Below, one piece after another: positions 8,376-59,305 of a stretch of 62,637 nt of DNA. The stretch lies in the NCBI GenBank assembly GCA_049276695.1, contig JBASWX010000179.1:1-62637 (forward strand), written 5' to 3'. This DNA comes from Planctomycetota bacterium. Lineage in GTDB: Bacteria > Planctomycetota > UBA1135 > UBA2386. A program made the translations under genes and the position numbers. The notes beneath the pieces were generated by a model. The model had not been told where the DNA came from. It searched no databases and saw only the letters and a program-made list of their open reading frames with translations. Position 1 is the stretch's first letter. Every line of letters starts with the position of its first letter.

Positions 8376-9179
8376 ATGACCACCGTCCAAGCCGCCCATC
8401 GCTCGGGTTTCGGCGCCACCACCCGACGCGACCGGTGGTGGATCAAGCCGCTCCTGGTGTTCGCCGGCTTCTCCGCCTTCATCGTCTATTCGACGTGGGC
8501 CGCGTTCCAAGGCGACCACTACTGGCTGCGGGACACGGGCTACTTGTCGCCGTTCTACTCGCCGGAGCTCTTCGGCGACTCGTCGCACAACTGGTTCGGC
8601 CCGAAGCCGGGCTGGTGGCCGTCGTGGCTGCCGTTCTCACCGGCACTGCTGATCCTGTGGGCGCCGGGCGGCTTCCGCTTCACCTGCTACTACTACCGCG
8701 GCGCCTACTACAAGTCGTTCTGGGCTGACCCGCCCGCGTGCGCCGTTGGCGAGCCGCGCAAGACGTATCTCGGCGAGAACTCGCTGCCGCTGATCCTGCA
8801 GAACGTGCACCGGTACTTCCTGTACCTGGCGCTGGCGTTCATCGCGCTGCTGGCGCACGACGCGTGGAAGGCGATGTGGTTCGCCGGCGCCGACGGCGTC
8901 GAGCACTTCGGCATCGGCGTCGGCACGATCGTGCTGACGATCAACGTCGTGCTGCTGTCGGCGTACACGCTCGGCTGCCACAGCTTCCGCCACCTCGTTG
9001 GCGGCGTGCTCGACGTGTTCAGCAAGAACCGCGTGCGCAAGAAGTGCTGGGACTGCGTGACCTGCCTGAACACGCGCCACCACCTGTGGGCGTGGTTGAG
9101 CCTGTTCTGGGTCGGTTTCAGCGACGCCTACGTGCGGCTGTGTTCGCACGGCGTATGGACCGACTGGAGGCTCTTCTGA
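8376..9179 (+). CDS. sdhC: Succinate dehydrogenase / fumarate reductase membrane anchor (cytochrome b-type subunit)
   Basis: 267-aa polytopic membrane protein rich in Trp/His/Tyr with conserved-looking His residues (e.g. 'LGCHSFRHLVGG', 'NTRHHLWAW'). Its stop TGA (9177-9179) overlaps the ATG (9179-9181) of the flavoprotein gene. The gene order C-A-B resembles single-anchor Sdh/Frd operons. Confidence 0.7.
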   Translation: MTTVQAAHRSGFGATTRRDRWWIKPLLVFAGFSAFIVYSTWAAFQGDHYWLRDTGYLSPFYSPELFGDSSHNWFGPKPGWWPSWLPFSPALLILWAPGGFRFTCYYYRGAYYKSFWADPPACAVGEPRKTYLGENSLPLILQNVHRYFLYLALAFIALLAHDAWKAMWFAGADGVEHFGIGVGTIVLTINVVLLSAYTLGCHSFRHLVGGVLDVFSKNRVRKKCWDCVTCLNTRHHLWAWLSLFWVGFSDAYVRLCSHGVWTDWRLF

Positions 9180-11014
9180 TGGCGAGTGGCGAGTCGGAAC
9201 GGTACGCGGTGCACGAGCACGACGTGCTGGTGATCGGCGCCGGTGGCGCGGGCCTGCGCGCGGCGATCGAAGCGTCGGCGGGCGGTGCGAAGGTCGGCCT
9301 CGTCTGCAAGTCGCTGCTCGGCAAGGCGCACACGGTGATGGCCGAAGGCGGCGTCGCCGCGGCGCTGGCGAACGTCGATGGGCGCGACGGCTGGCAGGTG
9401 CACTTCGCCGACACGATGCGCGGCGGCCAGTACGTGAACCACTGGCGCATGGCGCAGCTGCACGCGCAGGAGGCGCCGGCCCGCGTCCGTGAGCTGGAAG
9501 CCTGGGGTGCCGTGTTCGACCGCACCCACGACGGCAAGATCCTGCAGCGCAACTTCGGCGGCCACCGGTATCCGCGCCTCGCGCACGTCGGCGACCGCAC
9601 CGGTCTCGAGATGATCCGCACGCTGCAGGACCACGGCGTGCACCAGGGCATCGACGTGCACATGGAAGTGACCGTCGTGCGGTTGTTCCAGGACGGCGGC
9701 AAGGTGTGCGGCGCGCTGGCCTACGACCGCGAACGCGGCCGCTTCCGGCTGTTCCGCGCCAAGGCGATCGTGCTGGCGACCGGCGGCATCGGCCGCGCCT
9801 TCGAGATCACCAGCAACTCGTGGGAGTACACCGGCGATGGCCACACGTTGGCGTACGACGCTGGCGCCGAGCTGATCGACATGGAGTACGTGCAGTTCCA
9901 TCCGACCGGGATGGTCTGGCCGCCGAGCGTGCGCGGCATCCTCGTCACCGAGGGAGTGCGCGGCGAAGGCGGCGTGCTGCGCAACAACAACGGCAAGCGC
10001 TTCATGTTCGACGACATCCCGGAGAACTACCGCCCGCAAACGGCGAGCGATCCGGAAGAGGGCTGGCGCTACACGCAGGGTGACAAGGACGCGCGGCGGC
10101 CACCGGAGCTGCTGACCCGCGACCACGTCGCGCGCTGCATCATGCGCGAGGTCAAGGCCGGCCGCGGCAGCCCGCACGGCGGGGTGTTCCTCGACATCTC
10201 CTGGATCAAGGAGAAGCTGCCCGGCGCCCGCGAGCACATCCGGAAGAAGCTGCCGAGCATGTACCACCAGTTCAAGGAACTGGCCGGCATCGACATCACG
10301 ACCGAACCGATGGAGGTCGGCCCGACGACGCACTACGTGATGGGCGGCGTCAAGGTCGATCCCGACAGCCAGATGTCGACGGTGCCGGGCCTGTTCGCGG
10401 CTGGCGAAGTGGCGGCGGGGCTGCACGGCGCCAACCGGCTCGGCGGCAACTCGCTGAGCGATCTGCTCGTGTTCGGCAAGCGCGCCGGCGAGTACGCGGC
10501 GAAGTGGGCCAAGGAGCAACCGGCCGGCAAGGTCGGCGACCGCGACGTCGAAGCGGTGATCCAGCAGCTGCTGGCGCCGATGGAACGCGCCGCGGGCGGC
10601 GGCGAGAACCCGTACGTGATCCAGAACGCGCTGCAGAAGGAGATGCAGGCGCTGTGCGGCATCGTGCGCAACCAGGCGGAGATGGACAGCATGGTCGAGA
10701 AGCTCGCCGGCTACCGCGCGCGCGCCGCCAAGGCCATCGCCCCCGGCAACCGCGAATACAACCCGGGCTGGCACGGCGCGATGGACCTGCACTGCCTGCT
10801 GACCGTCAGCGAAGCCGTCGCGCGTTCGGCGGCCTCGCGGCCGGAGAGCCGCGGCGGCCACTTCCGCGAGGACTTCCCCGACAAGGACAAGAAGTTCGGC
10901 AAGCTGACGACGATGGTCAGGAGGGGGCCCGATGGCGCGATGCAGTTGAGCCACGTGCCAGTGCCGCAGTGGCCGGCCGAGATGCAGAAGATCATGGACG
11001 AGAACACCAAGTGA
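9179..11014 (+). CDS. sdhA: Succinate dehydrogenase / fumarate reductase flavoprotein subunit
   Basis: The internal ATG of the 758-aa ORF gives 611 aa starting MASGESERYAVHEHDVLVIGAGGAGLRAAIEAS (FAD dinucleotide-binding GxGxxG). Other hallmark segments are 'HTVMAEGGVAAA' (covalent-FAD His region), 'HPTG', 'GGNSLSDLLVFG' and 'ESRGGHFREDFP'. Confidence 0.92.
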   Translation: MASGESERYAVHEHDVLVIGAGGAGLRAAIEASAGGAKVGLVCKSLLGKAHTVMAEGGVAAALANVDGRDGWQVHFADTMRGGQYVNHWRMAQLHAQEAPARVRELEAWGAVFDRTHDGKILQRNFGGHRYPRLAHVGDRTGLEMIRTLQDHGVHQGIDVHMEVTVVRLFQDGGKVCGALAYDRERGRFRLFRAKAIVLATGGIGRAFEITSNSWEYTGDGHTLAYDAGAELIDMEYVQFHPTGMVWPPSVRGILVTEGVRGEGGVLRNNNGKRFMFDDIPENYRPQTASDPEEGWRYTQGDKDARRPPELLTRDHVARCIMREVKAGRGSPHGGVFLDISWIKEKLPGAREHIRKKLPSMYHQFKELAGIDITTEPMEVGPTTHYVMGGVKVDPDSQMSTVPGLFAAGEVAAGLHGANRLGGNSLSDLLVFGKRAGEYAAKWAKEQPAGKVGDRDVEAVIQQLLAPMERAAGGGENPYVIQNALQKEMQALCGIVRNQAEMDSMVEKLAGYRARAAKAIAPGNREYNPGWHGAMDLHCLLTVSEAVARSAASRPESRGGHFREDFPDKDKKFGKLTTMVRRGPDGAMQLSHVPVPQWPAEMQKIMDENTK

Positions 11015-20187: not shown

Positions 20188-21855
<1,668 letters not shown>

Positions 21856-21900
21856 GGGAATGCTCTCGGTGTGGGGTGTCGGGGTGGGATGGCGGCGCGC

Positions 21901-22209
21901 TCAGTTCTCGATCACCGCGAGGATCTCGTCCTCGCCGAGGATCAGCAGCTCTTCGCCGTCGAGCTTGATCTCGTTGCCGGCGTAGGAGGAGAAGAGCACG
22001 CGGTCCTTCTCCTTGACCGACATCGCCTGGCGGGCGCCGGTGTCGAGCACCTTGCCCTTGCCAACCGCGACGACGATGCCTTCGCGCGGCTTCTCCTTGG
22101 CGGTGTCGGGCAGGATGATCCCGCCCTTGGTCTTCTCGTCGGCGGCGACGCGCTTGACGAGCACGCGGTCGCCGAGGGGGGTGACGGTCATGGTCTTGGT
22201 CTTCGACAT
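21901..22209 (-). CDS. groS: Co-chaperonin GroES (Cpn10)
   Basis: The internal ATG (22207-22209) gives 102 aa: [53 protein letters not shown]...ILAVIEN. It lies 45 nt upstream of groEL. Confidence 0.95.
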
Positions 22210-27515: not shown

Positions 27516-30500
27516 TCACTTCGCCGGCGGCGCCACTTCGCGGATCACTGCGCCGCGCTGCTCGTCGAGCACCAGCACCGCGTAGCGGCTCGCTCCGGCG
27601 TTCGGGTCGTCGGACAGCGACGCGTAGTCGAAGCGGCCACGCAGGTCGGTGTAGCCGTCCTTGTGGAAACGCACGGTGCCGTCGGGCAGCTTCGCGAACA
27701 CCTTGACGTAGGTCTTCGGCAGCGGCGCCTGCGTGTCGGGCGCCGTCACCGCGACCTGGCCCCACGACTCCAGGAAGCGCACCGCCAGCGCATTGGCGAA
27801 GTACTGCTGGCTGCGCACCAGCCCCGCGCCGCGCACCTCGACCAGCACGTTCTTCTGCCAGAACTGCGCCGGCAGCGGGAACGACGTCGTCGCACCCGTG
27901 CCGAGGTCCCTGGTCTCCTGCAGGTTCGGCCGCACGAACGCCGCCGACGCGCCGTCCTTGCCGGCGAACGGCTGCGCCGAGAACGCGAACTCGACGTCGA
28001 GCTCGTAGTAGCGCACCTCGCACTGCGCGAGGTTCCTGTGCGCGATGTTCACGGTGCGGTCGGCGATCGCCAGTTCCAGCGACGGCGCCTGCGCGGCCTG
28101 GTCGGTCGTCGGCTCGTCGCCGGCCCCGGACCGGCCGGCCGCCGCGTCGAGCTGCGTCAGCACGTCGCGGAAGCGCTGCTGCCAGTGCAGCACCGGGTGG
28201 TCCTGGTGCCGCTGCGCCAGCGTGCGCGCCCGCTGCACGTCGCCGGTGAAGAAGCACGTCCACGCCGCCAGGTAGTCGTACTGCAGCTTCGCGGCGATGC
28301 GTTCGGCGTCGACCTTGGCGAACGCGGCGAGGCCCTCCTCGATGCGGTCCTGCAGGAACAGGTAGTACGACACGACCAGCCAGTCGTCGGCGTCGAGTTT
28401 CGGGTGGTAGCCGAGCAGCGTCATCAGCGAGGAGTACTGCCGGGCGAGGTCGGCGTTGCCGATCACGCGCTGGCTGCCCAGGCGATGCGCGCGCGGGTGC
28501 ACCAGCGGGTCGAGTTCGACGTGCTGGAAGGCGCGCCGTTCGCGCGGCTCGATGGTCAGCAGCGGCGAGCTCAATGCCATGCCGCAACGGGCGACGAAGC
28601 CGTCGAGCCGTTCGAGGTGCTCGCGCGTGCTCTGCACATCGCGGTGCAGGATCCCGTACGACCACAGCGTGTCGTCGAAGACGTGCCGCGCCCGCAGCTT
28701 CGCCAGCGTCTGGGTGAAGAACTCGCGGTCCTTCATCCGCCACGCGATCTTCGCCAGCTCGAGGCCCTGCACGTTGTGCGTGTCGAGGAACGCCAGCACC
28801 TGGGCCGGGCTGCCCTGTTGCGAGACGTGCTCCCACGACGTGGTGTCGATCCGGCTCGGCGTCGCGACCACCGCCAGCGTGCGTGGCTCGGCGTTGGCGG
28901 CGAGCTTGCCCTTCTCGGCGGCGTGCGCCGGGTAGTGCGCGAAGCTGCCGGGGCCCGGGAAGTAGAACGCGTACTCGATGGTCGCGGTCGCGTACGGCGC
29001 CAGCTGCACGGTCCGGCCCTTGGTCCAGAAGCCGTTCTGCAGCGGCACCGCACCCGCGGGGATCTGCAGCAGCACCTCGGCGGTGCGCTGCATCGAAGTC
29101 GGGTTGGTGACGACGACCTGGCAGCCGTAGCCCACGTCGACCAGGAACTCGTCGGTGACGAAGGCATCGCGGCGTTCGCCGTTCTCGACGCGATAGCGGT
29201 CGTCGAGGCGGAAGAAGTTCTCGCCGAGCAGCAGCGGCGCCTGGTCGGCGACGCGTTCGGTCCTGCTGACTTCCTTGCGCACCAGCAGCAGCGGCGAGGC
29301 TGCGCGGAGCGTGCGCGAGTCGCCGTCGGCGGTGATCTCGTGCTTGCCGGCGGTGAACGGCAGGTCGAGCACCGCCAGCGCCATCATCATCTCGAGGAAG
29401 CTGGTGCTGGCCTGCACGATCGCAGTCGACGCGAACGGCTGCCCCGCGGGTGCAGTCGCGTAGTCGACCCAGAACTGGTTCGGCGCGACCGCATCGGGCG
29501 TCGCCGCCGCCATGCCCCGGTGCCACCAGTTCTGCTCGACCACCAGCTTGGTCTTCGCGACGGCGCGGTAGAGCAGCCTGGCGCGTCCGCGCTCATCGAG
29601 TTCCGCAGCCTTCTCCTTGTCCGCCGGCTCCCCGGCCTGCAGTTCGTCGGCGAGCTTGGCATCCTCGGCGGCGTCCTTGCGCGCTTCGTTCTTCGCCTCG
29701 GCGCGGCGCTCGCGTTCGGGGGCCCCGGCCTTGGCCGCCGCCGGCGGCTGCACGCCGGTCGTCGGTCCAGACGGTCGCGGGTCAGCCTGCGCCTGCCGCA
29801 ACCCGCCGAGCCAGTGATCGGCGCCGCCCTTGTCGGCGAGTTCCTCGCTCTTCAGCGCCATCGCGAACAGCTCGCCGATGCGTTCGATGCTGACCGGCCG
29901 CAGTTCGAGCGCTTCGCGGATCGCGCGCGCGATCGCACCGCGCCCCGCTTCGTCGAGCCGCTGCGCCAGCAGGATGCGTTCGATCAGGTTCAGCTGCGCG
30001 AACCGCCACGGCTCGAGGAACGCCTTCAGGTCGTCGCCGAGCAGCCAGTGGTCGAGGAACGTCTTCTCGAGCTTCTGCGCGAGGAACGGCTTCACCACCG
30101 CGGCGAAGAACTCCGGGTCACGCCGCGACAGGAAGAAGTGCAGCTCGTGGCAGGCGTGCTGCCGGTAGAGCTGCTGCTTCTCGACCATCGTCCTGGTCGG
30201 CCACGTGGTCACGAACGCGAACTTCGCCAGCTCCGGGTCGCGCGAGATCGTGTTGAGCAAGCGGAACACGCTCGCCAACGAGTCGTGGATCTCGACCTCG
30301 GCCGAACGCGCGTCGGCGAGCACCGCGGTGCCGCCAGCGGCGACGAACTCGATGCGTCGCTGTTCGACGAAGTGGGCAGCGGTGTCGAGCGCGCGCGGCA
30401 ACGTGCGCGACCGCGGCGCCACGGCGACCTCGCTCCGCACCAGCGACTCATGGATCGCCTGGTCGCCGTCCAGCGCCACGACGTGCACGTGCTGGCCATC

Positions 30501-33500
30501 GCCGAGGTCGGCCGCCGGCACGCGCACCATGCCGTCGTCGCCCGGCGTCAGGTTCGCCAGCCAGGAACTGCCGCGCGGCAGCCAGTCGAACGACGCGAAG
30601 GTGCCCGGGTTCGGTTCGAGCCCAGCCGCGGAGTGCTGCGGCGCCGGCGATGCGCCCGGTGCGCCGCCGCTGCGCCGGCCACCGAAGCGGCCACCGGCAC
30701 CCCCACCGAGACCGACTGCCTCGTTCGTCGTCTCTTCGAGCAGCCACGGGTTCAGCAGCAGGCTCGGCCGGGTCAGCATGTTGCCGGCGAACTTCGGCGC
30801 GAAGCGGCGCTCGAGCACGTAGCGGTACTCGTCGCCGAGCTTGCGACCGGAGTGGTAGCTGCTCGGCACGGTCTCACCGACGAACGCTCCGGGCGCGCGT
30901 GCCGGCGCACCAGCCAGCGCGAACGGATCGAACGTCGGCAGGTGCCGCGTCGCGACCACGTGCACGCGCGTCGCCGAAGTGACGTTCGCGAGCGCAATCC
31001 GCAGCTCGCCACCCTCGACCCGCACCGAGCGCACGTGCAGCGGCGCCGTCGAACTCGCCGCCAGGATGCGCTCCCTGCCGACCAGCCAGCGGCGGTCGCG
31101 TTCGCCGGCGGTCACGCGCACCGGGACCAGAGCGCCCGTGCGGTGGTCGTGCAGCGCGTAGTCCCCGGCCGGCAGCCCGCGCAGTTCGACGAAGCCATCG
31201 GCGATCGCCAGGTTCGCGAACATGTCCGCTTCGAGACCGAGCAGCGAGAACTCGGCGCGGCTCGGGGCCTGCGCACTGCCCTGGTAGGGCAGGCGCAGCA
31301 CGTCGCCGGCGCGACCGTGCAACGCCCGCGGCATCCGGGCGGCGTGCGGCCGCAGTTCGAACCGCCCACCCGTGCCGCCGGCCCGCTGCACGCTGACCGC
31401 CAGCACGCCAGGAAGTCGGCCGAGCGCGATGCGGCCGCTGCCGTCGGTCTGCAAGCTGACCGCGATCGCTTCGCGCAGATCCTGGTGCGCGAGCTGCAAG
31501 GCACAGGTCCGTCCGGCGAGCACTTCGCCGTTCTTGCCGCGCACCTCGACCACGTAGCCGGCTTCGGTCGCGAGCAACACGGCACTGCCGGTCTCGGCGG
31601 TCGCGTCGATGCCGTTCACCGGGAACGACGTCGCCGGCGTCGCCACCGCGACGTCCTGCCCGGCGAGGTCCTTCACCGTGCCGCGCAACGACACCGCGAT
31701 CGCCGCCAGCCGTTCCGGCACGGCGATCTCGTGCACGAACTCGCGCTCGTCGACCAGCGCCGGGTCGCGCACCTCCATCGTCGTCGCCAACCCGTCGCGG
31801 TCGGTCGCGACGACCGTCAGCACGCGGTCCTTCCACAGCGCCAGGCCGACGTCGTGGTCGGTCAGCCGCAGTTGCGGCCGCACCACGATGCGGGCCTTGC
31901 CGCCGGCGACCAGCGCCTCGCGCTCGACGTGCGCGGCACCCGTCAGCTCGTAACGTTCGGCGCGGTGCTCGAACGGCACGATGCTCGACCGGTTGCCGGC
32001 GCGCAGCACCAGCCTGTGCACCCCGGGCGCGGTCGAGAACGGCAGCAGCAGGTTGCCGCGTTCGTCGGGCAGGTACTCGCGACCGCCGAACCACGCCATC
32101 GCCGCCGGCACCGCGCGCCCGGTCTCGTCGAACACGGTGACCAACTGGCCGCCGGCCGCCGTGCGTTCCGCGAGGCGCAAGGCGCCCTTGTGGATCACCG
32201 CGCGGCTGCTGGTGCCGTTGCCGACCAGCTCGACCACGTAGGTGCCCGGTTCGCGCAGCATCGGCAGCTCGAACGTGCGCCGCACGCGGCGCAGCGGCGG
32301 CTCGTCGTAGCTGAACGTCTGCTCGAAGTTGGCGATGACGCCGTCGAGGTCGATCGTCGCGTCGACCTCCTTCTGCTTCTCGACGTGGTAGCGGAACGCG
32401 TCGATCGCGAACACCTTCAGCAACAGCGTCGGCACGTTCTTGGTGTCGACCTCGAGCCGCACCGCATCGTCGGCGCCGTGCCGCACCGGCAGCGTCGGCG
32501 GGAACGTGATCTCGATGCGCTGCTTCAACGCCTCGAGTCGCGCCGGGTCGGCGAGCAGCGCGTACCACCGTTCGGGATCGCCCTGCCCGAGCAGCAACTT
32601 CGTTTCGGCGAGCACGACCTTCAGCCAGTTCGCGTCGAGGAACTCCGCGTAGGCGTCGATGCCGTCTTCGCTGGCGAACCAGTGCTCGAGGCACGCGCGC
32701 AGCAGCGCCTCGTCGTCGCCGATCGCCGGCAACCCCGTCGGGTACGCCACGCGCAGGTCGACGTGTTCGTCGCCGCGCGCGAACTGCTTCAAGTACTGCT
32801 CCGCCCGCACGCCCGACCGCCGCGGCAGCCGGATGTAGGCGAGGAAACGCTCCTTGTCGGGCGCACCCTGCGTCAGGTCGTGCTGCAGCCAGTGGAACAG
32901 CACGTGCGCCTTCAGCGAGTTGAACGCCGGCGGCAGCCGCTGCGCGAACTCCCACAGCCGCCGCAACTGCGCCGCCCGCGCTGCCGGGTCGTCCTGCCAC
33001 GACACGTCGGCCCCGGGCTGCAGCCGCACCAGGTACGCCCGCACGAACCTGCCGTCCTGCAGCAGGCCCGGCCGCAACCGCACGCATTCCTCGAGCTGCG
33101 CGCGCCGCAGCAGGCGGTGCACTTCGAAGCTGCCGAAGCCGCCGCTGCCGCGTTCCTCGAGGTCGCGCACGACCAGCGCCGGCAGGTTGTCGACGTCCGG
33201 CCGCCGCAGCCGCTGCAGCAGGCTGCGCAGCTGCCGCGGGTTCAACGCCTGCGCCGCCAGCGCCGGCAGCGCCGCGTCGGTGAACGCATCGACGCTCTCC
33301 GGCGACCGTTCCAGCGCCACGCGCGTCAGCGCTTCGCCCGACAGCACGCCCGGGTCGAGCCGCGTCGGCAGGTCCGACACCGCCCCCGGCACGATCGGCT
33401 GGTGCGCGAACGTGTAGCCGAGCTCCCGCCGCAGCAAGGCGAACGAACGTTCCGGCTCCGCCGCGAACGACAGCAGCGCTTCGCGGTACTCGATCTCGAT

Positions 33501-33764
33501 CGCGCGGTCGTGGCGACCGTGCCGCTGCGTCCACACCGGCAGCAGCGTGCGCACCGCGGCGAAGTCGCCGGCGTCGAGCCGTTCGCGGCAGTGCCAGTAG
33601 CACCAGTCGTCCGACCCCGGGATCAGCGTCGCGACCGCCTTGGCGCGATCGGGCGCCAGCGCATAGGTCTCCTCGAATCCGATCGGGGTGCCCTGGGCGC
33701 GCAGGGCGGCGGTGACGGCGGCAAGGGTGAGAAGGACGGCGATCCGGCGGGATGGCGTGGACAT
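27516..33764 (-). CDS. Giant (2082-aa) secreted protein of unknown function
   Basis: The ATG at 33762-33764 gives MSTPSRRIAVLLTLAAVTAALRAQG (signal peptide). Composition is balanced, with abundant W/Y/F/K/E/D across all 2082 aa. The protein has a helical N-terminal ~450 aa and a beta-rich middle with Ig-like repeats ('GTYVVELVGNGTSSRAVIHKG', 'AGYVVEVRGKNGEVLAGRTCAL', 'LPAGDYALHDHRTGALVPVRV'). It also has a Gly/Arg linker, a Lys/Glu/Ala low-complexity stretch, TPR-like helices and a C-terminal 'KTYVKVFAKLPDGTVRFHKDGYTDLRGRFDYASL' segment. The equally long + ORF 27663..33896 is Arg/Gly/His-rich nonsense. Confidence 0.85.
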   Translation of the reverse strand: MSTPSRRIAVLLTLAAVTAALRAQGTPIGFEETYALAPDRAKAVATLIPGSDDWCYWHCRERLDAGDFAAVRTLLPVWTQRHGRHDRAIEIEYREALLSFAAEPERSFALLRRELGYTFAHQPIVPGAVSDLPTRLDPGVLSGEALTRVALERSPESVDAFTDAALPALAAQALNPRQLRSLLQRLRRPDVDNLPALVVRDLEERGSGGFGSFEVHRLLRRAQLEECVRLRPGLLQDGRFVRAYLVRLQPGADVSWQDDPAARAAQLRRLWEFAQRLPPAFNSLKAHVLFHWLQHDLTQGAPDKERFLAYIRLPRRSGVRAEQYLKQFARGDEHVDLRVAYPTGLPAIGDDEALLRACLEHWFASEDGIDAYAEFLDANWLKVVLAETKLLLGQGDPERWYALLADPARLEALKQRIEITFPPTLPVRHGADDAVRLEVDTKNVPTLLLKVFAIDAFRYHVEKQKEVDATIDLDGVIANFEQTFSYDEPPLRRVRRTFELPMLREPGTYVVELVGNGTSSRAVIHKGALRLAERTAAGGQLVTVFDETGRAVPAAMAWFGGREYLPDERGNLLLPFSTAPGVHRLVLRAGNRSSIVPFEHRAERYELTGAAHVEREALVAGGKARIVVRPQLRLTDHDVGLALWKDRVLTVVATDRDGLATTMEVRDPALVDEREFVHEIAVPERLAAIAVSLRGTVKDLAGQDVAVATPATSFPVNGIDATAETGSAVLLATEAGYVVEVRGKNGEVLAGRTCALQLAHQDLREAIAVSLQTDGSGRIALGRLPGVLAVSVQRAGGTGGRFELRPHAARMPRALHGRAGDVLRLPYQGSAQAPSRAEFSLLGLEADMFANLAIADGFVELRGLPAGDYALHDHRTGALVPVRVTAGERDRRWLVGRERILAASSTAPLHVRSVRVEGGELRIALANVTSATRVHVVATRHLPTFDPFALAGAPARAPGAFVGETVPSSYHSGRKLGDEYRYVLERRFAPKFAGNMLTRPSLLLNPWLLEETTNEAVGLGGGAGGRFGGRRSGGAPGASPAPQHSAAGLEPNPGTFASFDWLPRGSSWLANLTPGDDGMVRVPAADLGDGQHVHVVALDGDQAIHESLVRSEVAVAPRSRTLPRALDTAAHFVEQRRIEFVAAGGTAVLADARSAEVEIHDSLASVFRLLNTISRDPELAKFAFVTTWPTRTMVEKQQLYRQHACHELHFFLSRRDPEFFAAVVKPFLAQKLEKTFLDHWLLGDDLKAFLEPWRFAQLNLIERILLAQRLDEAGRGAIARAIREALELRPVSIERIGELFAMALKSEELADKGGADHWLGGLRQAQADPRPSGPTTGVQPPAAAKAGAPERERRAEAKNEARKDAAEDAKLADELQAGEPADKEKAAELDERGRARLLYRAVAKTKLVVEQNWWHRGMAAATPDAVAPNQFWVDYATAPAGQPFASTAIVQASTSFLEMMMALAVLDLPFTAGKHEITADGDSRTLRAASPLLLVRKEVSRTERVADQAPLLLGENFFRLDDRYRVENGERRDAFVTDEFLVDVGYGCQVVVTNPTSMQRTAEVLLQIPAGAVPLQNGFWTKGRTVQLAPYATATIEYAFYFPGPGSFAHYPAHAAEKGKLAANAEPRTLAVVATPSRIDTTSWEHVSQQGSPAQVLAFLDTHNVQGLELAKIAWRMKDREFFTQTLAKLRARHVFDDTLWSYGILHRDVQSTREHLERLDGFVARCGMALSSPLLTIEPRERRAFQHVELDPLVHPRAHRLGSQRVIGNADLARQYSSLMTLLGYHPKLDADDWLVVSYYLFLQDRIEEGLAAFAKVDAERIAAKLQYDYLAAWTCFFTGDVQRARTLAQRHQDHPVLHWQQRFRDVLTQLDAAAGRSGAGDEPTTDQAAQAPSLELAIADRTVNIAHRNLAQCEVRYYELDVEFAFSAQPFAGKDGASAAFVRPNLQETRDLGTGATTSFPLPAQFWQKNVLVEVRGAGLVRSQQYFANALAVRFLESWGQVAVTAPDTQAPLPKTYVKVFAKLPDGTVRFHKDGYTDLRGRFDYASLSDDPNAGASRYAVLVLDEQRGAVIREVAPPAK

Positions 33765-51452: not shown

Positions 51453-51529
51453 ACGCCCGTAGCTCAGTCGGCTAGAGCGCCTGCCTTACACGCAGGATGT
51501 CGGGGGTTCGAGTCCCTCCGGGCGTACCA
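51453..51529 (+). tRNA. tRNA-Val (anticodon UAC), CCA encoded
   Basis: Hand-folded cloverleaf. The acceptor stem is ACGCCCG/CGGGCGU, the D-arm GCUC-AGUCGGCUA-GAGC, and the anticodon arm CCUGC-CUUACAC-GCAGG (anticodon UAC). The variable loop is AUGUC and the T-arm is GGGGG-UUCGAGU-CCCUC. The discriminator is A, followed by CCA. Total length is 77 nt. Confidence 0.9.
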
Positions 51530-56721: not shown

Positions 56722-58122
56722 TCAGCGCTTGCCGCCCGCAGCGGACTCCAGCCGCAGCTTGTCGATCCACACGACGCAGTCGTTGACGCCGAACGACCAC
56801 CAGCCGCGCATCAACCGCGCCCCCTGGTCCCACGTGCCGACGACCTGCCCGTCGACCACGACGCGGATCTGCTTGCCGACCTCGACCGTCGCGTCGAAGC
56901 GCTTGCGCGGGAAGATCGGCGCCTTGCCCTCGGCCAGCTTCTGCCAGTCGTTGCCGGGCTTCCACATCTCGATGCGCCACTTCCCGACGCCGAAGAAGCA
57001 GCCGATCATGCTGTCCTCGGTCCAGTCGAGCTGGATGCGGAACGAGTCCTCGCCGCAGGGCAGGATCTCGAAGTTGCCGGTCACGCGATAGTCGCCCTGC
57101 GCCGGCGGCTTGCCGATCGCCTGGATCTGCATCGACTCGGCGGCGGTGCCGACGGTGAGCAGACGCTGCTCGCGCAGCCCCGCCATCGGCGCCGTCTCGC
57201 GCCACTGCGGCCGGATCGTCTGGCAGTGCTTGGTGAACGCGGACTCGTTCTTCAACCAGTCGGAACCGAACGCCTTCTCGGTCGCGTGGCCGCGGATCTC
57301 GCCGCGCGTGGTGACCTTCTTGCCCGGCTTGGTGAACAGCTTCTTCGCCCAGCCCTTGCCGGTCATCGCCAGCATGCGCGCAATCATGCACTTCGCCCCC
57401 TCGTCGTCGTCGTATTCGGCGCGCGTCGTGCCGGAGTCGAAGTCCATGATCATCGGCTGCAGCAGCACGTCCTGCCGCGATTCGAGCTTGTGCCAGAGCT
57501 TGTAGCGGCGCGTGTCGTAGGCCGGATCGAGGCCGAACTGGTGCGTCGGGTTGACGACCGCCTCGAGCACCGCCCAGCCGAACACTTCGTACAACCACGG
57601 ATCGGTGGCGACGAACGGAGCGTGCTGCGCGGCGACGAGCTGGGCGGCGCGCGCGATCAGCGCTTGCCGCGTCGGTTCGGGCAGGCCGACGATCTCGGTC
57701 GCCTTCGCCGACAGGATCGGCCACAGCAGCAGGTGCGCCTCACCGGCCGCGTAGTCCGCGAACGACTCGATCGGGATCTTGGCGCCGGTCGCCGCCAGCT
57801 TCTCCTTCTCGCGGAACACCGGCTCGTCGGCCCAGACGTGCAGCACCAGCGGCTTCGCCGGCTTGCAGCCGAGCAGCTCGTCGATCACCGGCCACGCAGC
57901 CTCGGCACTCTTCTGCGCCTCGTCGGCCATGCGTGCAGCGACCGCCGGCCACACCTTGGTGCCCGCGTGCAGGTGCACCGCGAAGTGCGCACCGGCGCGC
58001 ACCACCGGATCCTGCGCGCGCACCGTGGCGCCGGCCACCAACGCGCACCACGCACCCACCGGAACGATCGCTGCCACCACTGCCGACGACCTGGTTCCCA
58101 TCGCGGCCATGCTACGCCGCAC
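56722..58122 (-). CDS. Secreted protein, unknown function (C-terminal jelly-roll/DUF1080-like region possible)
   Basis: 466 aa (GTG at 58122; ATG alternatives at 58110 and 58101). The signal-like segment is 'SSAVVAAIVPVGAWCALVAGATVRAQ'. The composition is W/K/E/F-rich. The C-terminal 'FRIQLDW...GVGKWRIEMWKPG...WSFGVNDCVVWIDKLRLE' is beta-sandwich-like. Confidence 0.7.
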   Translation of the reverse strand: MRRSMAAMGTRSSAVVAAIVPVGAWCALVAGATVRAQDPVVRAGAHFAVHLHAGTKVWPAVAARMADEAQKSAEAAWPVIDELLGCKPAKPLVLHVWADEPVFREKEKLAATGAKIPIESFADYAAGEAHLLLWPILSAKATEIVGLPEPTRQALIARAAQLVAAQHAPFVATDPWLYEVFGWAVLEAVVNPTHQFGLDPAYDTRRYKLWHKLESRQDVLLQPMIMDFDSGTTRAEYDDDEGAKCMIARMLAMTGKGWAKKLFTKPGKKVTTRGEIRGHATEKAFGSDWLKNESAFTKHCQTIRPQWRETAPMAGLREQRLLTVGTAAESMQIQAIGKPPAQGDYRVTGNFEILPCGEDSFRIQLDWTEDSMIGCFFGVGKWRIEMWKPGNDWQKLAEGKAPIFPRKRFDATVEVGKQIRVVVDGQVVGTWDQGARLMRGWWSFGVNDCVVWIDKLRLESAAGGKR

Positions 58123-58214
58123 CGCGCATCGTTGCAGGTTCCTTACCGGCCCGCCGCCGGTCGGGGCGGCGCACTGCGGCTAGATTCCCGGCTCTCCTGC
58201 TCCCCCGAGTCCCC

Positions 58215-59186
58215 ATGAAGTTCGACTATCTGTTCGCCTCCCTGCTGCTGGCGATGCCGGCAGCCGCGCAAGAACGCGCGACCGTCGGCGCGAAGATCCC
58301 CGACGCGACCTTCCAGTTCCTGAACGGCGACGGCCGGACCAGCCTGTCCGACTTCTTCGGCCAGCCGGTCATGATCGACATCTGGGGCACGCATTGAGGC
58401 CCGTGCATTGGCAGCTCCGTGCCGAGCGCCATCAAACACGATCACGAGAAGTCCAGCCGCGGCCTGGTGTCGCTGCTCGTCGAGGCGCAGGGCGCCGACG
58501 CGGCGACGCTCGAGGCCTTCCTGTGGAAGACCTTCCCTGACAACGACTGCTTCGTCTGCCCCAACGTGTTCGTGCCGATCCCCGAGTCGCGCGGCATCCC
58601 GCACGGCGGCCTGGTCGGCGTCGACGGCACGCTGCTGTGGGCCGGCCACCCGGTCGGCGACGCCAAGAAGATCGAGGAACTGATCGAAGCCGAGCTGGCC
58701 AAGGTCAAGAAGGGCTGGGGCGACACCGCCGAGGTCCGCAAGATGCGCGCGGCGCTGTACGGCAAGGGCGACTTCGCCGGCGCCGCCGCCGCGATCGCGA
58801 CGCTGCCCGATGGTGAGCACAAGGCCACGCTGCAGGGCGAGATCGACAAGCGCTACGGCATCGCCAAGAAGTCGGTCACGGCGCTGCAGGAACAGGGCCG
58901 CTTCCTCGCCGCGCAGGCCGCCGCCAAGTCGCTGCTGAAGGGCGTCGGCACCAAGGCCGAATGGGTCACCGAGGTGACGCCGATCGTCACGTCGTTCGAC
59001 ACCGGCTCCGGCGCCGCCGAGATCGCGCTCGACAAGAAGCTCGACAAGGTCATCAAGCAGCTGCGCGACGGCAAGGGCGACGGGGCGCCCAAGCAGCTCC
59101 AGGCGATCATCAAGAGCGGGCAGGGAACGAAGGTCGGGGCTCGCGCGGAGCGCACGCTCACGGCCCTCAACACCCCTGTCAAGTAG
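58215..59186 (+). CDS. Candidate selenoprotein: secreted thioredoxin-fold (TlpA/redoxin-like) protein with a U-G-P-C redox motif and a helical C-terminal extension. TGA 58395-58397 would be read as Sec.
   Basis: The ATG at 58215 gives MKFDYLFASLLLAMPAAAQERATVGAKIPDATFQFLNGDGRTSLSDFFGQPVMIDIWGTH-[TGA]-GPCIGSSVPSAIKHDHEK... The downstream ORF 58419..59186 is in the same frame (24 nt after the TGA). The motif context equals 'FWatWCgPC' of TlpA/thioredoxin-like proteins, with TGA at the first Cys. 'GIPHGGLVGVDGTLLW' fits the cis-Pro loop region. Confidence 0.6.
58409..58431 (+). promoter_or_regulatory. SECIS-like hairpin downstream of the in-frame UGA
   Basis: U-GGC-A-GCUC [CGUGCC] GAGC-GCC-A forms 8 bp with one bulged A and a 6-nt loop containing GU. 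The stem starts 11-12 nt after the UGA and the loop lies about 21-26 nt after it, which is the range described for bacterial SECIS elements. Confidence 0.45.
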
Positions 59187-59305
59187 GACGACCCGCAAGC
59201 AGCCGGCCGGCGCGCCAGGCCGCGCCGGCGGCTGATGCGTCGCATCCGTTGTGGGCTGGGTGCTTCGTGGACCCGACGATACGTCAGAACCTGAGGAAGA
59301 CCTGG

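Follow-up and report, generated by a model that had tools for sequence, protein, structure and literature searches.

A predicted exported thioredoxin-fold selenoprotein, annotated as two hypothetical proteins, in uncultured Planctomycetota

Does the UGA triplet at 58395–58397 of contig JBASWX010000179.1, from a Planctomycetota bacterium (assembly GCA_049276695.1), end one small gene shortly before another begins, or is it decoded as selenocysteine (Sec) within a single gene? The contig was analysed over its whole length of 62,637 nt and is referred to here as the window. We consider it very probable that 58215–59186 on the plus strand is one genuine gene, which runs from ATG 58215 through a Sec-UGA at 58395–58397 to the stop TAG 59184–59186, carries a selenocysteine insertion sequence (SECIS) element behind the UGA and is predicted to specify one exported selenoprotein. 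We favour a single selenoprotein gene because Sec and Cys pair at the homologous position across the family, because purifying selection extends across the UGA and because the hairpin that follows the UGA covaries.

The reading frame across the UGA

The initial annotation of this DNA had noted two open reading frames (ORFs) that share one frame across a TGA, and had joined them from ATG 58215 into a product of 323 codons; coordinates, frame and product were all reproduced. ORF 57933–58397 closes '...IDIWGTH' ('...GQPVMIDIWGTH') at TGA 58395–58397, and past the TGA the unchanged frame gives 'GPCIGSSVPSAIK...' ('GPCIGSSVPSAIKHDHEK...'), which is the frame of ORF 58419–59186. The joined product comprises 323 residues (sense codons, with the TGA counted), or ~35 kDa with the signal peptide still on, and ends at TAG 59184–59186. 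A split by automated annotation had also been foreseen, and the NCBI records do hold such a pair, each labelled 'hypothetical protein': WAT39_05710 (58215–58397, plus strand, 60 aa), the N-terminal piece obtained if the Sec-UGA is read as a stop, and WAT39_05715 (58419–59186, plus strand, 255 aa), a truncated call that starts at a GUG in the putative SECIS loop.

The GC content of third codon positions (GC3) is 0.92–0.93 and that of second positions (GC2) 0.43–0.47 on both flanks of TGA 58395, and because of this periodicity the plus-strand frame can be taken as coding; the long antisense ORFs at the locus were set aside as a usual artefact of DNA with 70.5% GC. Since 24 of the 28 genes called in the window end, in the ordinary way, at TGA, a reassigned genetic code is excluded, and the triplet at 58395 is the sole in-frame TGA of the window that combines a two-sided coding signal with a redox motif.

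A database search with the joined protein recovered ~100 clusters of roughly 255 aa, all identically truncated, together with 15 full-length proteins (315–331 aa). Thirteen of the latter carry WGT[RHNK]-C-[GP]PC at the active site; of the other two, P0043 has Ser and P0007, according to its DNA, Cys. The UGA had been placed at the first Cys of a CxxC motif, with Cys and an uninterrupted protein expected in homologues, and the full-length forms, whose Cys aligns with the UGA, agree with both expectations. At the DNA level the homologous codon is TGA 44 times, TGC nine times and AGC once among genome and metagenome loci, drawn from GTDB species genomes and JGI/ENA metagenomes, that are 40–75% identical to the window protein; TAA and TAG were never seen in these loci. 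The counts include three duplicate entries (locus L019 repeats the region of L003, both being contig CAZIFB010000006.1, and L023 repeats L022), and the TGA form is spread over 13 GTDB species genomes and ~30 metagenome contigs. The downstream half did not occur as an independent gene in any homologous locus examined, so that homologues which terminate at this codon and leave a separate gene behind it were not encountered.

Selection was measured on 14 Sec-type genes as the ratio of non-synonymous to synonymous substitution (dN/dS, Nei–Gojobori method). Upstream of the TGA (35 codons) the ratio is 0.31; in codons +1 to +4, the linker that separates the TGA from the annotated GTG, it is 0.11, and over the remainder of the downstream gene 0.38–0.55. 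Within the linker, Gly +1 and Pro +2 are near-invariant (with one Thr at +1) and have third-position entropies of 1.15 and 1.79. Judged from these substitution patterns, purifying selection is acting on both flanks of the TGA and on linker codons +1 to +4, and both halves are translated as a single protein.

The hairpin downstream of the UGA

A bacterial SECIS (bSECIS) hairpin is predicted at 58410–58430 (plus strand) from its fold, its covariation, the synonymous conservation of its codons and the bSECIS criteria. It is made up of GGC 58410–58412, a bulged A at 58413, GCUC 58414–58417, the loop CGUGCC 58418–58423, GAGC 58424–58427 and GCC 58428–58430, giving a lower stem of 3 bp (58410–58412 with 58428–58430) and an upper stem of 4 bp (58414–58417 with 58424–58427). 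The G-U of the loop occupies nucleotides 25–26 counting from the U of the UGA, and GTG 58419–58421, the start chosen by the gene caller for the 255-aa ORF, is the GUG of this apical loop. What had originally been proposed was an 8-bp hairpin at 58409–58431; its fold, bulged A and loop stand, and its eighth pair falls away, as U58409–A58431 is not conserved and the core has seven pairs. The bSECIS model specifies a loop of 3–9 nt with G among its initial two nucleotides, an upper stem of at least 4 bp, a distance of 16–37 nt from the UGA and a minimum free energy (MFE) of −7.5 kcal/mol or lower (PMC13188914). In the window, the loop measures 6 nt, has G at position 2 and U after it, and begins 20 nt past the UGA; the upper stem has 4 bp, and the energy of the hairpin in isolation is −8.9 kcal/mol.

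Comparison between species argues for the same element. Third-position entropy over codons +5 to +12 is 0.09, against a gene mean of 0.86, and this is the lowest eight-codon window of the gene; codons +7 to +11 (TCC GTG CCG AGC GCC, all four- or six-fold degenerate) are identical at the nucleotide level in 14 of 14 species. The loop CGUGCC is invariant in all 27 distinct aligned Sec-type sequences, and CGUGC(C) is retained in four that were added later. The upper stem, GCUC/GAGC elsewhere, has become AUGC/GCAU in loci L050 and L051 and UCGC/GCGA in L054, changes that are compensatory, and in L052 and L055 the same loop tops a hairpin whose register is shifted. Over the alignment, 96.3% of the cells of the structure are paired and three of its seven pairs (5 cells) are changed on both sides, and neither value is reached by any of 500 shuffles; slid controls show 30–57% pairing against the 96% of the proposed hairpin. 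Cys- and Ser-type genes have similar peptides (e.g. GFAVPTA), but their nucleotides vary and one to three of the seven pairs can form; in the Ser-type gene at 1537 of L014 (AGC), pairing is down to one of seven. On this comparative footing, the hairpin at 58410–58430 is an RNA element whose conservation goes with the UGA.

A competing structure, hairpin B (U[U/C]GGC[A/G] / GCUCCG / UGCCGA; UUGGCA / GCUCCG / UGCCGA at 58408–58425 of the window), cannot form together with the SECIS stem and is the RNAfold MFE structure in several homologues. Compensatory changes are missing from it, and its pairing does not exceed that of shuffles; we rejected it because it lacks covariation and is disrupted in L050, L051 and L054. 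The covariation thus backs the SECIS-like hairpin that had been proposed behind the UGA, not its competitor. Rfam gave no match at gathering thresholds, and a permissive scan of 58300–58520 yielded chance matches only.

Among characterized elements, the SECIS of Escherichia coli fdhF is a minimal SelB-binding hairpin with G-U at nucleotides 23–24 and a GGUC-type loop. The hairpin of the window resembles it in lying within the coding sequence 3' of the UGA, in having a single bulge below a 4-bp upper stem and in its G-U apical loop, and differs from it in the loop (CGUGCC), the 3-bp lower stem, the unpaired UGA and the placing of G-U at 25–26; its binding of SelB is putative. Two Cys-type genes, in L019 and L020, carry a different 7-bp hairpin ~20–37 nt past the TGC (10184), UCGCGGU / CCCG or GCCG / ACCGCGA, with a 4-nt loop at the position that the SECIS occupies in Sec-type genes; this may be a remnant or may be due to chance.

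Alternative explanations

Several observations weigh against a Sec-UGA/SECIS gene and should be considered together. The stability of the hairpin is ordinary for its composition (z = −1.04, with 29 of 200 shuffles folding equally well), and ~18% of the TGA triplets in the window, at 70.5% GC, pass a comparable SECIS-type filter; since the shape alone does not rise beyond chance, the case rests on the comparative data. The covariation in turn stems from only two or three divergent lineages, and the loop departs from the most frequent sub-pattern, that with a pair between N1 and N2. Nor does a conserved gene neighbourhood point to a specific substrate or pathway: none of the genes adjoining the window copy recurs beside homologues, no ccm, ccdA or dsbD neighbours were found at the loci examined, and synteny elsewhere is partial (a ROK kinase upstream in ~7 loci). 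Finally, selA, selB, selD and tRNA-Sec were not found in the 62.6-kb window or in the DNA of relatives that was examined. A tblastn search with E. coli SelD and a scan for the EF-Tu G1 motif as a probe for SelB found nothing in the ~386 kb covered, and ARAGORN, run on the window and on 43 loci, detected no tRNA-Sec. Neither the window nor the locus flanks held further UxxC or CxxU candidates with TGA, and a loose search for hairpins with a CGUGC(C) loop behind a TGA gave matches at chance level only. The missing machinery is weak as negative evidence because the DNA sampled is tiny relative to the genomes, and Sec machinery is present in the phylum, in Gemmata obscuriglobus, Isosphaera pallida and two Porphyra-associated strains (PMC4807772).

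How far, then, do other explanations account for the locus? If the annotation were taken literally, a 60-aa secreted peptide would be followed by an independent 255-aa protein starting at GTG 58419, as gene callers and NCBI have it here and in many metagenome-assembled genomes (MAGs). We think this very improbable, given that the codons between TGA and GTG, though untranslated in such an arrangement, are constrained in frame (dN/dS 0.11, with near-invariant Gly and Pro while third positions vary), that the split falls within one thioredoxin-fold domain, at the catalytic residue, that Cys-type homologues are single uninterrupted proteins and that the supposed start sits in the hairpin loop. A pseudogene, or a Cys codon (TGC or TGT) turned into TGA by a sequencing or assembly error, would need a single-base change from TGC. 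However, the same TGA, in the same gene sequence, recurs in another NCBI assembly (GCA_049651865.1) as well as in two Logan assemblies of separate sequencing runs, which speaks for the genuineness of the triplet, and its 44 occurrences among divergent loci, with purifying selection on both flanks, lead us to regard this explanation as effectively refuted.

The two remaining alternatives concern what the hairpin does. Nucleotide conservation behind the TGA might reflect amino-acid or codon-usage constraint on G-S-S-V-P-S-A with no RNA structure involved, and it is true that Val-Pro is conserved in the Cys forms too and that high-GC codon bias lowers synonymous variation. Yet four- and six-fold degenerate codons are wholly invariant only here, in a gene with a mean entropy of 0.86; the residue changes of L050, L051 and L054 (GYAVPHA, GFAVPRA) are exactly such as to preserve pairing, and Cys forms with similar peptides vary in their nucleotides and lose the pairing, so that protein constraint has very little chance of being the explanation. 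Somewhat less remote, but still improbable, is a UGA read through without Sec, by near-cognate Trp, Cys, Arg or Gly or by SelB-independent recoding, with stimulation by the hairpin. Downstream hairpins are generally able to stimulate read-through, and Sec machinery was not found in the DNA sampled for this genome. Against this stand the alignment of the UGA with the catalytic Cys of CxxC in homologues, which is the classic signature of Sec, the match of the hairpin to a SelB-type bSECIS in position, loop G-U and bulge, an apical loop that is invariant in its nucleotides, as a protein-binding site would be, and the occurrence of Sec machinery in the phylum.

Returning to the single selenoprotein gene, we suggest that the hairpin at 58410–58430 would recruit SelB carrying Sec-tRNA(Sec), that UGA 58395 would be decoded as selenocysteine and that translation would run on to TAG 59184. 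The signal peptide would then be cleaved, leaving a probably periplasmic product whose U-G-P-C site would cycle between a selenol/thiol and a selenenylsulfide state. A partner or substrate probably docks on the 158-residue helical domain; we infer the reductase direction, the existence of such a substrate and recycling by a membrane reductase of the CcdA/DsbD type.

The predicted enzyme and its family

The product begins with a predicted signal peptide of the Sec export type (residues 1–19, 58215–58271, plus strand; MKFDYLFASLLLAMPAAAQ), recognized from its sequence: the N-terminus follows a pattern of K/R, a hydrophobic stretch and A-x-A-Q (AAAQ here) that is kept in homologues, and residues 1–20 of a homologue modelled with AlphaFold2 (AF2) have a low predicted local distance difference test score (pLDDT, 53–63). 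From this signal-peptide-like N-terminus we predict that the product is exported. There follows a thioredoxin-fold redoxin domain of the ResA/TlpA/CcmG type (residues ~20–165, 58272–58709, plus strand), assigned from Pfam, AF2 and Foldseek. Pfam Redoxin PF08534 matches residues 24–92, spanning the UGA with U replaced by C, at E = 3e-6 and 27.5 bits, a small margin over its cut-off of 26.6; PF13098 gave no match and PF00578 stayed under its cut-off. The AF2 model of P0002, a Cys homologue 62% identical to the window protein, reaches pLDDT 94.2 and a predicted template modelling (TM) score of 0.90, and Foldseek places its N-terminal 150 residues closest to ResA, DsbE/CcmG and a Bacillus anthracis thiol-disulfide oxidoreductase (top PDB matches at E ~2e-6, TM ~0.79 normalized to the target). 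The TlpA/redoxin-like fold claimed at the outset is thus borne out by the PF08534 match and by the ResA/DsbE-like matches of the homologue model.

The active site U-G-P-C lies at 58395–58406 (plus strand), with the UGA at 58395–58397 and the codon of the resolving Cys at 58404–58406. A predicted cis-Pro-loop region, G-I-P-H-G-G-L-V-G-V-D-G-T-L-L-W, occupies residues 127–142 (58593–58640, plus strand); P129, G135, V136, D137 and G138 are invariant in 55 family members, in keeping with the cis-Pro-loop-like segment proposed earlier, the cis conformation itself being putative. A helical extension had been recognized as well and is present, its length being 158 residues (166–323; 58710–59183, plus strand) and not the ~200 first given. 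In its AF2 model this C-terminal domain is all-helical, with eight helices, faintly resembles tetratricopeptide repeats (TPR) and has pLDDT 95.4; it has no Pfam family, and its best Foldseek match in the PDB is insignificant (E = 0.39, TM 0.24–0.30).

Thioredoxin-fold selenoproteins with a UxxC motif are an established, populous class, as the initial annotation had stated (PMC1794560; PMC2398784; PMC13188914). With ResA, TlpA and CcmG (DsbE) the window protein shares the fold (TM ~0.79, target-normalized, to ResA 2h1b, 1st9 and 1su9, to DsbE 3gl3, and to 4nmu), the motif x-W-x-T-x-[C/U]-x-P-C where helix 1 begins, the cis-Pro-loop region, an N-terminal export signal, predicted here, and probably the same working mode as a periplasmic disulfide reductase. 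Unlike them, it has Sec in place of the nucleophilic Cys, preceded by His instead of Trp, and adds the 158-residue helical domain, which has no significant relative in the PDB. Because its NCBIfam scores fall far under the cut-offs (ResA NF002854, 26 bits against 170; TlpA NF047696, 24.9 against 230), we do not consider it an orthologue of ResA or TlpA. The gene product, of the ResA/TlpA/CcmG structural class, probably serves as a thiol-disulfide oxidoreductase in the periplasm, and for its specific biochemical role we lean, with some reserve, towards that of a periplasmic disulfide reductase.

Two catalogued selenoprotein families come close in kind. The 'Prx-like 3' or 'Redoxin family protein' selenoproteins seen in the Global Ocean Sampling (GOS) dataset are likewise PF08534 proteins with a thioredoxin-like fold, Sec first in UxxC, plentiful Cys homologues and, immediately downstream, an in-frame SECIS, but they have F-A/T-S/T-W-U-x-x-C sites and other C-terminal regions. 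Comparison by blastp with five GOS Prx-like 3 sequences revealed no similarity (best E = 0.57), and the signature peptides of the window family were not found in the part of the GOS dataset that was searched. HEU0032618.1, the 'Redoxin family protein' of the review PMC13188914, was not found among the family members. The WAxxUGC selenoprotein (NF041054) is also ResA/TlpA-like, with Sec in its redox motif and a similar length (profile of 354 positions), but the window protein scores 17.3 bits against a cut-off of 300 and has W-G-T-H-U-G-P-C (UxxC) where the other has W-A-x-x-U-G-C. NCBIfam holds no model for the window family. The class is known, and the family appears to be uncatalogued and set apart from the two catalogued families compared.

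An exhaustive search of 1.84 billion representatives (clusters formed at 50% identity) found the C-terminal domain in only 85 clusters, almost always behind a redoxin-like domain. They comprise 22 with truncated V/M-P-x-A-I starts, six full-length with CxxC, one full-length with SxxC, 34 full-length without a Cys motif and 22 fragments or others; the truncated calls were taken as a proxy for Sec-type genes, so that the artefactual start is repeated in 22 representative clusters. The 34 clusters (P0166, P0167, P0173, P0178 and ~30 more) form a sister group of the same architecture, namely signal peptide, thioredoxin-like domain and helical domain, with no Cys/Sec motif. One of its members, P0166, shares 35% identity along its full length (E = 6e-44), and from their sequences these proteins look like redox-inactive relatives. 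Ser at the nucleophilic position (SxxC) occurs in two members, the L014 gene at 1537 (AGC) and protein P0043.

In a neighbour-joining tree, which was not bootstrapped, Sec forms are spread over the whole family and reach its deepest branches, Cys forms fall into at least four clades and Ser appears twice. The tree suggests repeated switching between Sec and Cys in the family, in which Sec is possibly ancestral. Tandem paralogues exist in which a Sec copy (TGA) lies directly upstream of a Cys copy (TGC), at 8856–9833 and 10001–10978 of L019 and at 1356 and 2500 of L032. In L019–L021 the region ~1–10 kb upstream of the Cys-type gene is a shared neighbourhood of multihaem cytochrome-like proteins, DUF2959, an MBL-fold protein, a ROK kinase and an HdrA-like Fer4/Pyr_redox_2 protein of ~750 aa, and a conserved protein of 257–261 aa without a Pfam match sits after that gene.

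In this analysis the family was encountered only in uncultured Planctomycetota of high GC content, in material of sludge, soil, freshwater and marine origin, the source samples being mainly activated sludge, soil, rhizosphere and lake water. Two loci bear anammox titles, L002 (CAMAUH010000109.1, 'Candidatus Kuenenia stuttgartiensis') and L003 ('Brocadiaceae'); their genes are 66–70% identical to the high-GC family. Anammox genomes have ~40–45% GC, and because both loci have 70%, the labels or the binning look doubtful.

In the window itself the stop codon is directly followed by a GC-rich hairpin (59186–59247, plus strand; −39.3 kcal/mol, z = −3.09, none of 200 shuffles as stable), which may be a stem of terminator type, although it lacks a U-run and a terminator consensus scan did not report it. 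Neighbouring genes encode an MFS transporter, a GNAT acetyltransferase and a radical-SAM protein and, on the opposite strand, a 459–466-aa and a 547-aa protein without Pfam matches. Farther away are an apparent GroES/GroEL pair, judged from N-terminal sequence only (20188–22209, minus strand), a 2082-aa ORF with a strong coding signal (27516–33764, minus strand) and the sole tRNA of the window, tRNA-Val with anticodon TAC (51453–51529).

Finally, considering the family as a whole, we give an even chance to the wider proposal that it is an uncatalogued selenoprotein family of uncultured high-GC Planctomycetota, in which a ResA-like Sec enzyme is joined to a new TPR-like domain, Sec, maybe ancestral, has given way time and again to Cys and to Ser, and a sister group has lost the redox motif altogether. 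The gene described here is useful for annotation and for work on Sec/Cys evolution, and would come as no surprise to a specialist in selenoproteins. In the window MAG and in dozens of others, annotation divides one gene into two 'hypothetical proteins', and as NCBIfam has no model such split calls are not rescued; with a model of the family, many records would be corrected and the use of Sec in this clade of Planctomycetota flagged, and the invariant CGUGCC loop with its covarying stems offers a lineage-specific SECIS model for finding more selenoproteins in these genomes. If our reading is true, organisms mainly of sludge, soil, rhizosphere and lake water have an exported selenoprotein, and a series from Sec through Cys and Ser to redox-dead forms exists on one scaffold, with Sec/Cys tandems in some genomes. 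The family would then lend itself, as a compact system, to the question of what a periplasmic thiol-disulfide enzyme gains from selenium.

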